In this document: piece by piece, positions 1 through 35,467 of the stretch
Layout: each line of letters begins with the position of its first letter
Position numbering within the stretch: position 1 is the first letter of the stretch
Assembly: GCA_963980225.1 (NCBI GenBank)
Contig: CAXBYW010000006.1
Location: 1 to 35,467 of the forward strand
Source: an uncultured bacterium
GTDB taxonomy: Bacteria > Patescibacteriota > Microgenomatia > UBA1400 > MFAQ01
Length of the DNA: 35,467 nt
Direction of reading: 5' to 3'
Program-made: the position numbers and the translations under genes
Notes under the pieces: generated by a model
Told to the model about the DNA's origin: nothing
Seen by the model: the letters and a program-made list of their open reading frames with translations, nothing else
Databases searched by the model: none

Positions 1-2
1 CT

Positions 3-434
3 CTTCAAACCCCTCTGGCAGCTAATGATACTTACTATTGGCGTTCTTATGCCATCGATCCGGGTGGTAGCAATACCTGGAGTGGAACTCAAACTCCCTA
101 CTCATTTACCACTGCCGTTGTTAACTCTCCGTCAGCCTGCACCATAGAGGAAGCAGACGACGACAGTTCCTTAACCTTAAGCTGGACAGACACTTCAGAC
201 AACGAAGACGGCTTTGATATAGACAGGAGTGTAAATGGTGGTGCTTGGGCAGATCTAACCACTAAAGGAGCTGGAGTCACCTCCCACCAAGACTCCACTA
301 TTTCCCAAGGAAACACCTACCAATACCGAGTCGCCTCATACATTACTGGCGTTATTTACAGTGAATGGTGTTATGCCAGTACTTTAGATGTTCAATCGGG
401 CTCTTTCCAGTTTGAAAACATCAATTTCAATTAA
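3..434 (+). CDS. C-terminal part of a surface protein with fibronectin type III domains (5' truncated by the window, missing from the ORF track)
   Basis: Frame 3 is open from the window start to TAA at 432-434: ...DTYYWRSYAIDPGGSNTWS...LTLSWTDTSDNEDGFDIDRS...TISQGNTYQYRVASY..., matching FN3 LxW and YxYRV signatures. Confidence 0.85.
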   Translation, partial: LQTPLAANDTYYWRSYAIDPGGSNTWSGTQTPYSFTTAVVNSPSACTIEEADDDSSLTLSWTDTSDNEDGFDIDRSVNGGAWADLTTKGAGVTSHQDSTISQGNTYQYRVASYITGVIYSEWCYASTLDVQSGSFQFENINFN

Positions 435-441
435 TCTACAT

Positions 442-491
442 AAAAAACCGAGTGGTCTCAAACTAAAGTATTAAAGTTTGATTCCACTCAG
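442..491 (-). terminator. Intrinsic terminator closing the tRNA-like transcript (may also act on the FN3 gene)
   Basis: Minus strand CTGAGTGG-AA-TCAAACT...AGTTTGA-GA-CCACTCGG followed by TTTTTT. Confidence 0.7.
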
Positions 492-504
492 AATAATTTT
501 TTAA

Positions 505-653
505 GAGCCTGAGAACCATGCAAACTTGGCGGGAAAGCATATTGGAGGAGAAAAATATTTTCTCAAGTTCTCAGACTCATATTAACCGACAAGACAAAAC
601 TGATCACCTCCTTTATGTATATAAAAGAACCTCTCTTGTTTTATCTTGTCGGT
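505..653 (-). ncRNA. Two long hairpins (505-578 and 585-653) forming a structured 3' extension of the tRNA-like element
   Basis: GAGTCTGAGAAC/GTTCTCAGGCTC and CCGACAAGATAAAAC/GTTTTGTCTTGTCGG; the single non-Watson-Crick position in each stem is G-U on the minus strand. Confidence 0.55.
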
Positions 654-656
654 AAG

Positions 657-730
657 TCGGCCCGATGGGGTTTGAACCCACGACCTTGAAGATATCATCT
701 TCACGCTCTCCCAGTCTGAGCTACGGGCCA
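657..730 (-). tRNA. Atypical tRNA-Ile(GAT)-like cloverleaf
   Basis: TGGCCCG-TA-GCTC-AGACTGGGA-GAGC-G-TGAAG-ATGATAT-CTTCA-AGGTC-GTGGG-TTCAAAC-CCCAT-CGGGCCG-A; U1:G72, A32-U38, no encoded CCA. Confidence 0.75.
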
Positions 731-748
731 TTCTTAAAGTGCTTTGCA

Positions 749-778
749 AATATAGCACGCACCTTGAGCCTACGTCAA
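749..778 (-). promoter_or_regulatory. Sigma70-type promoter for the tRNA-like RNA
   Basis: TTGACG-N18-TATATT with a TG extension, 18 nt upstream of the tRNA 5' end. Confidence 0.6.
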
Positions 779-6003: not shown

Positions 6004-6065
6004 CAAACACCTCTCTTGATTATTCTATTAGCTAGTTGTTTAAAAAACATTCTCGCTTTATATTG

Positions 6066-6138
6066 TGGACCCGAGGGGGATCGAACCCCTTGCCTCTTCC
6101 ATGCCATGGAAGCGCTCTACCAACTGAGCTACGGGCCC
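6066..6138 (-). tRNA. tRNA-Ala(GGC)
   Basis: Full cloverleaf GGGCCCG/CGGGTCC-A with G3:U70, anticodon loop AT-GGC-AT, T loop TTCGATC. Confidence 0.97.
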
Positions 6139-6184: not shown

Positions 6185-6255
6185 GGACCTGTAGGCAAAC
6201 GGTATACCATACCCCTCGCACGGGTAAATTGGCGGCTCGATCCGCTTAGGCTCCA
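6185..6255 (+). tRNA. Deformed tRNA-Ala(CGC)-like element (pseudo-tRNA or non-canonical tRNA)
   Basis: Perfect anticodon arm TACCC-CTCGCAC-GGGTA; T arm GGCGG-CTCGAT-CCGCT with a 6-nt loop; acceptor GGACCTG/TAGGCTCC-A needs a bulge; weak D stem. Confidence 0.6.
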
Positions 6256-33964: not shown

Positions 33965-35005
33965 AGAACCACCTTCTTTTAAAACCTTCTTTACTTCACT
34001 AGCCGAATTACAAACGACCAACTTTCGCCTCAACTCAGAAGCATCATCAAACCCTTTTGCGTACCAACTTAAATGTTTTCTGACAGCAAGAAACCTATCA
34101 TCAGGATAATACTCTTCAAACTTCTCTGCATGTTCTAAAGCCACCTTAAGTCTTTCTTTAACCTCTACCTCTCCCATATTTTTCACAAACACCCAAGGAT
34201 TTCCAAACGAAGCCCTACCAACCAAGAAACCATCTCCTCCGTACTTCTTAATTTTTTTCTTTCCATCTTCAACTGACCCAATATCTCCATTCCCTAATAG
34301 CAACGTATCTGTTTTTTTACAAAGCTCTGCTGCTTTTTTAATCTCTTTCCAATCAGCCAAACCACCATACCCTTGCTTCAAGGTTCTCCCATGCAAACTA
34401 ATTACAGCCGGTTCACTCGATAGCAAAACCTTTATCCAATCCTCTGTCACTGGCTTACTATACCCCACCCTAGTTTTAACACTCACCGGAATTTTCTTTC
34501 TCTCTACCACCCCAGACTCACCAACACTTACTATGTAATCAACAATCTTCTTATGTACACCCTTATCTTCCAAACTAACTCCACTAACCCAATCATCCAC
34601 AGCTTTTTTTGTCTCCTTGATTATCTCAACCGCTAGCTTAGGTGTCTCAATTAAACCAGCTCCTTCCCCTCGATTAGCTACCTTTCTAGCCGGACAACCC
34701 ATGTTAATATCCACTCCATCAAACCCTAAAGCACAAACAACCAAAGTAGCTAAATAAAATGCGTTTGGATCTTTACCAAAAAGCTGAGCCACCACTGGAG
34801 ACTCAATCTTGTCATATTTAAAATCACGCATTAACTTAACAGCTCCTGCTCTTATTCCTTCCGCACTCACAAACTCAGTAAACACCACATCAGGGTTTCC
34901 ATGTTTCTTAGTGATAAACCTCATAGCAGCATCCGTCACCCCATCCATTGGTGCCAGTCCCACAATCGGTCCTTTAATATTTTCCCAAAATCCTTTATAA
35001 ACCAT
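33953..35005 (-). CDS. dus: tRNA-dihydrouridine synthase (Dus family)
   Basis: LAPMDGVTD, QLFG, DINMGCP, SVKTR, HGRT, GNGDI, RKHL. Confidence 0.95.
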   Translation of the reverse strand: MVYKGFWENIKGPIVGLAPMDGVTDAAMRFITKKHGNPDVVFTEFVSAEGIRAGAVKLMRDFKYDKIESPVVAQLFGKDPNAFYLATLVVCALGFDGVDINMGCPARKVANRGEGAGLIETPKLAVEIIKETKKAVDDWVSGVSLEDKGVHKKIVDYIVSVGESGVVERKKIPVSVKTRVGYSKPVTEDWIKVLLSSEPAVISLHGRTLKQGYGGLADWKEIKKAAELCKKTDTLLLGNGDIGSVEDGKKKIKKYGGDGFLVGRASFGNPWVFVKNMGEVEVKERLKVALEHAEKFEEYYPDDRFLAVRKHLSWYAKGFDDASELRRKLVVCNSASEVKKVLKEGGSLYT

Positions 35006-35039
35006 ACATCAAAAAAAAATAACCAACTTAACAACTTTG

Positions 35040-35113
35040 TGGGCGAGCCTAGATTCGAACTAGGGACCTCAGTCTTATCAGGACTGCGCTCTAACCAACT
35101 GAGCTACACGCCC
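35040..35113 (-). tRNA. tRNA-Ile(GAT), canonical
   Basis: GGGCGTG...CAGTC-CTGATAA-GACTG...CCTAG-TTCGAAT-CTAGG-CTCGCCC-A. Confidence 0.97.
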
Positions 35114-35143
35114 GCCAGGCTTAATTTTAACATAACTGATACC

Positions 35144-35166
35144 AAAAACCCGCCTTTTATAGCGGG
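35144..35166 (-). terminator. Intrinsic terminator between 16S and tRNA-Ile
   Basis: CCCGCT-ATAAAA-GGCGGG-TTTTT. Confidence 0.7.
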
Positions 35167-35294
35167 ACTTAAGGTAAAAATCATCTCAATAGTGATAGGA
35201 AGTTTTTTTGGGTGTTGATTTCTTTTATTACTTAATCAACCAAAAGTAAAGCGTTCATACATTACTCGAAGCTCGTGACGCTCCGAGATCTCCT

Positions 35295-35467
35295 AGAAAG
35301 GAGGTGATCCAGCCGCTCCTTCCAGAACGGCTACCTTGTTACGACTTAGCCCCCATCACCAACCTTACCTTAGGTGGTCCTTCCCAAGTAAACTTGGTTA
35401 AGGATACCAACTTCGGGCACTGCTGATTTTGTTGACTTGACGGGCAGTGTGTACAAGATGCGAGAAC
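35295..35467 (-). rRNA. rrs: 16S rRNA 3' end (partial)
   Basis: Minus strand AAGTCGTAACAAGGTAGCC...GGATCACCTCCTTTCT and the GTACACAC conserved region. Confidence 0.99.

Follow-up and report, generated by a model that had tools for sequence, protein, structure and literature searches.

The stretch of DNA analyzed here, called the window below, is the entire 35,467-nt contig CAXBYW010000006.1 (contig C6) of an uncultured marine bacterium of the Patescibacteriota (assembly GCA_963980225.1; Microgenomatia, UBA1400, MFAQ01), whose genome of 683 kb is represented by 7 contigs and is 99% complete. The element under study occupies positions 433–778 of the minus strand, where a long folded RNA tail comes after a tRNA-Ile(GAU) gene that stands alone; in the direction of transcription, a promoter-like site, the tRNA, hairpin 1, hairpin 2, an A-rich linker and a nested terminator succeed one another. 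A preliminary description of positions 442–778, made from the sequence alone, had interpreted these parts as a ribosome-binding RNA in which a tRNA mimic is joined to a hairpin that displays a Shine-Dalgarno (SD) sequence in its loop. Its coordinates were largely right, whereas the looped SD sequence and the tRNA mimic were not. The region is identical in the contigs of four independent marine runs, with zero differences and no variants, and its DNA is therefore real.

The minus-strand promoter announced in that description is found at 749–778 as a sigma-70-like TTGACG-18-TATATT with a TG-extended −10 element (10/12 matches), and a leader of ~12–15 nt separates it from the tRNA. Four promoter-like sites were found within 380–920, against 1.1 expected. 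Both ARAGORN and the Rfam tRNA model (RF00005; 53.5 bits against a gathering score of 29) recognize a tRNA-Ile(GAU) at 656/657–730 on the minus strand, in agreement with the cloverleaf originally outlined at 657–730. When its residues are numbered by the standard convention, this tRNA has a U1-G72 pair, A73 and a canonical 7-nt anticodon loop, CCA is not encoded, and all of the invariants checked by eye are present (U8, A14, G18G19, U33, A37, G53–C56, A58 and C61). What was called a mimic is thus a complete, canonical-looking tRNA. It looks fully functional, and its anticodon loop would allow decoding. At the gathering threshold, and also at E ≤ 1, the Rfam scan of the 442–778 region returned only the tRNA, which accords with the initial impression that the rest belongs to no known family.

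The tRNA at 657–730 is the second tRNA-Ile(GAU) of the genome, the first being located at 35039–35113, after the 16S gene. The closest of the genome's own tRNAs is 73% identical to it, and no orthologue was found in 30 relatives. At E ≤ 0.001, matches of any kind came from only 3 of these 30; the best, at 76%, is a tRNA-Ile(UAU) and is the sole match spanning most of the molecule, and a partial match of 30 nt reaches 87%. The rRNA-linked tRNA-Ile was matched in 30/30 relatives and was 96–100% identical in the two genomes that share the genus. By these comparisons, the 657–730 gene is a divergent second copy without an orthologue in the relatives examined.

Hairpin 1 (585–653, minus strand) begins 3 nt past the tRNA discriminator and forms a 69-nt rod of −32.0 kcal/mol (z score −7.4), against −19.6 kcal/mol on the plus strand. 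It comprises a 16-bp basal stem with one G-U pair, where 15–16 bp had been counted ~3 nt after the cloverleaf, a 9-bp upper helix, an AUAC loop and internal loops that include tandem G-A/A-G; TTA is present at both of its flanks. Hairpin 2 (505–578) is a junction domain composed of a basal stem of 13 bp, rather than the 12 bp first read, with two G-U pairs, and two inner hairpins. The sequence CUCCUCC, previously noted in its loop, is present at 550–544 but half paired (3 nt paired, 4 nt free). The A-rich linker UUAAAAAAUUAUU (492–504), which is similar across the three paralogues described below, leads to a nested intrinsic terminator at the position first assigned to it (442–491), with an 8-bp outer stem and a 7-bp inner stem in the hairpin (448–491) and then U6 (442–447).

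Folding of the 220-nt trailer (436–655) gives −79.8 kcal/mol on the minus strand (z −7.9; 0/100 shuffles as good) and −59.4 kcal/mol on the plus strand (z −4.3). All G-U pairs of the tail fall on the minus strand, four of them in hairpin 1, which has no A-C mismatches, and six more in hairpin 2 and the terminator. The earlier argument that G-U pairs on this strand point to a minus-strand RNA therefore stands, and the far better minus-strand fold agrees with it. The 150 nt that follow the 657–730 tRNA rank as the most structured of the genome's 46 tRNA trailers (z −6.1), and those of module A on contig C2 come second (z −5.7).

A Shine-Dalgarno tract within hairpin 1

In the upper helix of hairpin 1, the 3′ strand carries the SD tract AAAGGAGGTGATC at 602–614 (minus strand), a perfect 13-nt complement of the 16S tail that matches 35297–35309 exactly, as had been pointed out. 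This 13-mer is found three times in the 683-kb genome when both strands are counted, namely at 602–614, as the complement of the 16S tail itself, and at C2:160052, where it is a working SD located 3 nt before the ATG of an 87-codon open reading frame (ORF). According to our composition-based arithmetic, ~0.02 such 13-mers would be expected genome-wide by chance. The tract was thought to be displayed in a loop; however, pairing probabilities of ≥0.97 were obtained in the predicted ensemble for 10 of the 13 nt, with AAAGGAG joined to UUCUUUU, and opening the tract costs 9.85 kcal/mol, compared with 4.67 kcal/mol for the real-gene SD at C2:160052. The calculated energy of its duplex with the 16S tail is −20.6 kcal/mol.

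As the preliminary description stated, no real ORF follows the tract. The only frame is that of six codons at 577–597 (UUG UCU UGU CGG UUA AUA UGA; UUG-SCRLI-UGA), which lies in the 3′ arm of hairpin 1, begins 9 nt past GGAGG (8 nt for the real gene at C2:160052) and is not kept in the paralogues. A 53-codon ORF that would require read-through of UGA was rejected, because the genome uses code 11, in which UGA is a stop: release factor 2 scores 437.9 bits (model cut-off 370), and TGA closes 122 of 483 long frames. A search by tblastx against the genome itself gave no coding remnant in the tail. This result and the rank of the trailer as the most structured of 46 argue against a decayed SD-led gene, a possibility that the preliminary description had named. 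Nor is 602–614 a fragment of the 16S gene, since the flanks of the 13-mer are no closer to the 16S 3′ end than shuffled sequences are; for the 60 nt that precede it on the plus strand, 445/500 shuffles scored as high. When targets for the free loops of the tail were sought, the best complementary matches measured 15 nt, which is at the level of chance.

The product of the 87-codon ORF on contig C2 (region 159600–160330) was judged from its translation to be hydrophobic and membrane-protein-like. This ORF directly follows an apparently truncated reverse-transcriptase-like frame, and may be a prophage or retroelement remnant.

Paralogues on contig C2 and searches in other genomes

A listing of long inverted repeats and of odd tRNA calls identified two tandem RNA genes of 550–600 nt each on contig C2, A (~80505–81077) and B (~81099–81645), which are flanked by rpmE/prfA on one side and by a gene for an EamA-type transporter on the other (the pair spans 80505–81645, or L012 1506–2646). 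They are 77% identical by column, with compensated stems. Each consists of a consensus promoter, a structured leader of ~140–170 nt and a tRNA-like cloverleaf with an aberrant anticodon loop, the cloverleaf of A having G3-U70. Immediately after the cloverleaf stands a hairpin whose 5′ strand, AAAGGAGG in A and AAAGAGGGUGG in B, is paired to CUCCUUU or CUCUCUUU; beyond it come more helices and a junction domain, then an A-rich linker and lastly a nested terminator. The leader holds a conserved box, CGCACTTATTGCACATTT, and A and B also have a long-range helix, GAAGACGAC; neither the box nor the helix is present in the window. A and B gave no Rfam match at E ≤ 1, and their matches in 60 relatives were confined to the tRNA part.

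The part of the window locus that runs from hairpin 2 through the linker to the terminator is, as judged by covariance modeling, detectably homologous to the 3′ domain of A and B. R2, a model based solely on the 3′ domains of A and B, with the window excluded, matched 433–587 of the minus strand over its full length with 46.6 bits (E 1.1e-6 per genome), and the next best match in the window, among 24 listed with filters off, reached 11.2 bits. Since R2 found nothing at E ≤ 0.05 in 40 other genomes of the family, it is not simply catching terminators. When the three sequences of A, B and the window were aligned, pairing was kept in 97.1% of 104 cells, against 29–49% in slid controls, and both partners differed in 18 of 37 pairs; this alignment was fitted to the model and leans towards pairing, and therefore the bit score of R2 and the empty searches of relatives are the sounder evidence. 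A model made from all three sequences (R3) retrieved only A, B and the window locus from the genome at E ≤ 0.01.

The three loci have in common a promoter, a cloverleaf, an SD/anti-SD-like helix, the junction domain and the nested terminator, in that order. Between the cloverleaf and the 3′ domain, each has an AAAG(G)AGG tract whose helix partner is a CUC(C)UUU-like strand; the match of the tract to the 16S tail is 13/13 in the window and 9/13 ungapped in B, and A carries the sequence given above. The distance from the cloverleaf to the tract is ~46 nt in the window, compared with 3–5 nt in A and B. By our arithmetic (46 tRNA genes × ~100 nt/683 kb), a third copy of the domain would fall ≤100 nt downstream of any of the 46 cloverleaves with a probability of ~0.7%. 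Because of the paralogous 3′ domain and this low chance of adjacency, and in line with the R2 score and the shared order of parts, the original proposal of one composite minus-strand RNA gene is supported.

Beyond A and B, searches for relatives of the element were negative. BLAST with 440–790 found only the self match in its own genome; of 60 relatives, 3 gave weak matches, restricted to the tRNA part, and 50,697 phage records gave none. R1, a single-sequence covariance model of hairpins 1 and 2, had no match in 60 relatives, and R3 had none in 150 other genomes of the order; the homologues in related genomes that the preliminary description had suggested collecting were thus not found (0/60 for R1, 0/40 for R2 and 0/150 for R3). 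The pattern searches covered a T-loop with 11 nt of the SD tract (0/285 other genomes of the order), an exact T-arm and acceptor pattern (0 in genome contigs), a T-loop with the 13-mer (0 in viral contigs; three unrelated genomes matched), an anticodon-arm pattern (0 viral; one chance match, within a coding region), hairpin 1 arm patterns (0 and 0 matches) and the terminator motif of A and B (0 viral; one archaeal match, not confirmed by R3). In the literature, as covered by titles and the openings of abstracts, an RNA that combines a tRNA-like part with an SD decoy was not described for Patescibacteria.

The neighboring membrane-protein gene (896–1531) has its own promoter at 786–814 on the plus strand, which stands back to back with the promoter of the tRNA-headed unit. 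A homologue of this gene was found in 6 of 40 relatives, with a tRNA at 0 of those 6 loci, and a tRNA-Ile was found at 0 of the best 80 of 283 metagenome loci. At 9 of these 80 loci (L048, L053, L065, L071, L075, L077, L083, L088 and L099), a tRNA-Ser(UGA) gene, in some cases together with a tRNA-Ser(GCU) gene, lies on the opposite strand upstream of the membrane-protein homologue, and these tRNA-Ser genes hold the same position as the tRNA-Ile unit of the window.

Several other features of the window and genome were recorded. Runs X17 and X18 contain a related but different contig, which has 18 letter changes and 12 gaps relative to window positions 1–407 and continues past 407 with unlike sequence, so that other sequence follows the end of the ORF at 3–434. 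At the other end of the window (34990–35467, minus strand), the 3′ end of the 16S gene is followed by tRNA-Ile(GAU), a T-run and a dihydrouridine-synthase-like gene (judged from the translation); no 23S gene follows the 16S and tRNA-Ile genes, and the rRNA genes must therefore be unlinked or split across contigs. A weak 70-nt call of tRNA-Ala(CGC) at 6185–6254 (plus strand; 34 bits), with mismatches in the acceptor and D stems, is divergent from a normal tRNA-Ala(GGC) gene at 6065–6138 (minus strand). Among the 46 tRNA genes, tRNA-Asn(GUU) was not found by ARAGORN or the Rfam tRNA model, and may lie in an assembly gap. Contig C4 contains a 72-nt GC-rich orphan tRNA-like gene at 92318–92389 (L013 1319–1390) with a GUA anticodon, a short variable arm and a score of 40.1 bits, which has its own promoter and terminator.

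Interpretation of the tRNA-headed gene

Positions 433–778 are best explained as an RNA gene that runs from promoter to terminator and joins A and B in a small family found in no other genome searched. Its three copies are best described as tRNA-headed structured RNA genes without an Rfam match, and the head differs between members, being a canonical-looking tRNA-Ile(GAU) in the window and an aberrant tRNA-like cloverleaf in the C2 copies. The fuller reading, in which cleavage of the transcript of this genome-specific gene yields a tRNA and a stable 3′ RNA, is put forward tentatively, with a probability of roughly 0.45.

A feasible course of events would be as follows. The tRNA-processing enzymes would recognize the cloverleaf, RNase P cutting at U1 and a 3′ endonuclease after A73, and the transcript would be split into the tRNA, which would receive CCA, and a 3′ RNA of ~215 nt. 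Hairpin 1, located 3 nt from the cut, would close the 5′ end of this RNA and the terminator hairpin would close its 3′ end; with both ends closed in this way, the molecule would be protected from 3′ exonucleases and from RNase J. The genome has genes for RNase III (248.3 bits; cut-off 166.25) and for RNase J (470.5 bits; cut-off 400). On this view, what the family members have in common is the 3′ RNA rather than the tRNA, and the 3′ RNA would be the likely functional product, following the logic of a tRNA 3′ external transcribed spacer (3′ETS) or of a "t-element." Given that the SD tract is mostly closed in hairpin 1, any action of it would follow opening of the helix, upon which it might pair with the 16S tail (calculated net energy of about −11 kcal/mol) or with a C-rich partner. 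It is also conceivable that the tract stabilizes the RNA by holding a 30S subunit.

A number of observations weigh against this reading. The listed runs that contain the stretch comprise 19 DNA runs from 17 studies, none of which is on record as RNA. No canonical RNase Z was found above the cut-off of 292.95, the best candidate being a metallo-beta-lactamase-fold ORF of 46.8 bits, which weakens the step of the 3′ cut. The paralogues are few, just three with two of them in tandem, and as the family was found in no other genome, there is no independent covariation to set beside the model-fitted alignment. The likeness of the three loci is also incomplete: the SD tract is on the 3′ strand of its helix in the window and on the 5′ strand in A and B; hairpin 1 has no counterpart in A or B by model or BLAST; and the cloverleaves of the window and of A and B are not specifically alike, BLAST with module A having failed to return the 657–730 tRNA. 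Finally, because the 657–730 tRNA looks fully functional, the unit could simply be a tRNA gene.

This last alternative, an ordinary extra tRNA-Ile(GAU) gene that was recently acquired or is evolving fast, appears possible but somewhat unlikely. The trailer would then be a structured spacer with a terminator shared with the convergent gene, and the SD tract would be the vestigial ribosome-binding site of a lost downstream gene. The canonical tRNA features, with an anticodon loop able to decode, and the strong promoter that the unit owns are those of a working tRNA gene, and the 13-nt SD does serve a real gene elsewhere in the genome. The lack of an orthologue in relatives is as a recent arrival would have it, since within the genus the rRNA-linked tRNA-Ile is kept at 96–100% and the 657–730 copy was not found. 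However, a mere spacer would not be expected to have a 3′ domain paralogous to that of two other cloverleaf-headed units or to be the most structured of 46 trailers. The notion of a lost gene is opposed by the tblastx search without a coding remnant, by the enclosure of both the SD and the start codon in the 69-nt rod (z −7.4), and by the four G-U pairs and absence of A-C mismatches in hairpin 1, which decay would not give.

A second alternative holds that the ~290-nt RNA is left unprocessed and binds ribosomes, with the SD tract on the 16S tail and the cloverleaf in a tRNA site, and thereby sequesters 30S subunits or biases initiation, doing as an RNA what hibernation or anti-initiation factors do as proteins. 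The 13/13 complementarity, expected only ~0.02 times genome-wide, the absence of a real ORF behind it and a calculated duplex energy that outweighs the opening cost would all suit such a decoy, and an SD-like tract follows the cloverleaf in all three paralogues. On the other hand, 10 of the 13 nt are paired, the spacing between cloverleaf and tract varies widely among the paralogues (~46 nt vs 3–5 nt), as do its position and helix strand, the tract of B is degenerate, processing would normally release a complete tRNA from its transcript, and the element is conserved in no relative searched. This alternative is therefore regarded as improbable. The same low standing is given to its extension to the whole family, in which the three chimeric RNAs would dock on the 30S subunit through the 16S tail, with the cloverleaf in the tRNA site, as an RNA-only regulator of initiation or storage. 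If it were true, initiation or ribosome storage would be under RNA-only control where no HPF-type protein was found. HPF/RaiA (PF02482) was not found in this genome, which could favor a decoy, nor in the two genomes of its genus. Its distribution is patchy, however (20 of 40 relatives), and the relatives that lack HPF show no such RNA either, so that no complementary pattern emerges and the absence of HPF carries no signal.

The link between cloverleaf and tail might instead be positional, if a mobile or extragenic structured element, such as a terminator cassette or an element resembling a miniature inverted-repeat transposable element, had landed three times beside tRNA or tRNA-like genes. 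The detectable sharing with A and B is limited to the 3′ 155 nt, TTA occurs on both sides of hairpin 1, and the distribution is confined to this genome, as a mobile element might have it. Against this stand the small number of three copies, two of which arose by tandem duplication of a whole 550–600-nt unit, the confinement of G-U pairs to the transcribed strand, and the ~0.7% chance that a third copy would land beside a cloverleaf; moreover, the change of both partners in 18 of 37 pairs with pairing kept argues for long constraint on an RNA fold. We consider such an origin to have little chance of being correct.

The remaining possibility, that ribosomes translate MSCRLI, melt hairpin 1 and so control terminator read-through into the antisense of the convergent gene, can draw on the position of UUG 9 nt past GGAGG (comparable to 8 nt at C2:160052) and on the location of the frame within the 3′ arm of hairpin 1, but is highly improbable given a frame of only six codons that is not conserved in A or B and ends at a genuine UGA stop, with no downstream gene on the minus strand.

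Comparison with known systems and implications

Certain classes of RNA that carry tRNA-like or tRNA-binding modules were considered and ruled out. In tmRNA, a tRNA-like domain is formed from the 5′ and 3′ ends, and the tag frame has neither an SD nor a start codon. The window locus resembles tmRNA in joining a tRNA-like part to an mRNA-like part, and tmRNA acts on ribosomes; however, 442–778 was called as tmRNA by neither ARAGORN nor Rfam, and a normal tmRNA is encoded elsewhere in the genome, at C4:20951–21356. T-box leaders are characterized by a stem I with a specifier loop and by the T-box sequence; no T-box leader (RF00230) was found at E ≤ 1 in C6:1–2290, in a search that recovered the one on contig C4 (89.6 bits). 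That leader, at C4:92514–92774 (L013 1515–1775), scores just under the gathering score of 93, follows the orphan tRNA-like gene of C4, has the specifier UUA (Leu), and precedes a 319-aa ORF without a Pfam match and then a metallo-beta-lactamase-fold ORF; a protein of this fold is encoded at C4:93869–94453. Bacterial Y RNAs (YrlA) consist of a tRNA-like module and an Rsr-binding stem, and occur with a Ro60/TROVE protein in the genome; they were ruled out here by the lack of an Rfam match and of the TROVE domain (PF05731; 0 in this genome, with matches in 2 genomes as a control).

Closer parallels to the proposed processing exist among tRNA-linked RNAs. In haloarchaea, t-elements flank 5S rRNA. 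Such elements have been described as tRNA-like signals that shape RNA ends (PMC1920247), and in the accounts given for plant mitochondria and haloarchaea, a cloverleaf stands beside another RNA and RNase P and RNase Z define the ends (PMC1920247, PMC4326828). By analogy, the aberrant anticodon loops of the C2 copies would fit a cloverleaf that is not used in decoding. The known cases differ from ours in being organellar or archaeal and in flanking mRNAs, 5S rRNA or engineered CRISPR RNAs, whereas the present genes belong to a bacterium and the 657–730 cloverleaf has the look of a usable tRNA. In E. coli, 3′ETS-leuZ is reported to be released from a pre-tRNA and to act as a sponge of small RNAs (PMC8383071). 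The likeness lies in an RNA segment transcribed behind a tRNA, with release and independent action only proposed here; the tail in the window differs from 3′ETS-leuZ in its length of ~215 nt, its high degree of structure, its 13-nt SD and its membership in a paralogous family.

The presence of an SD without a gene also has a precedent. The STAB-SD of cryIIIA is an SD without a productive ORF that stabilizes the 5′ end of an RNA. Similarly, at the strong SD of B. subtilis hbs, bound ribosomes or 30S subunits are reported to block 5′-to-3′ decay by RNase J1 (PMC5737220). The window shares with STAB-SD an extensive complementarity to the 16S 3′ end (13/13 nt) and the lack of a productive ORF, in a genome that encodes RNase J. 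By contrast, the SDs of STAB-SD and hbs are accessible and reside in mRNA 5′ untranslated regions, whereas that of the window is ~46 nt from the predicted processing site, in a helix and in a gene-less RNA.

If the three units were silent or merely terminators, the finding would be reduced to an ordinary extra tRNA gene. As annotated here, ~1.5 kb of a 683-kb genome goes to three strongly promoted, highly folded RNA genes that lie outside Rfam, each joining a tRNA-shaped head to a tail with a ribosome-binding-site-like sequence. The gene-less perfect 13-nt SD offers a direct way of testing whether RNAs of this kind contact the ribosome. If the genes are expressed, the logic of the 3′ETS and the t-element would also serve ultra-small bacteria in making dedicated structured RNAs.

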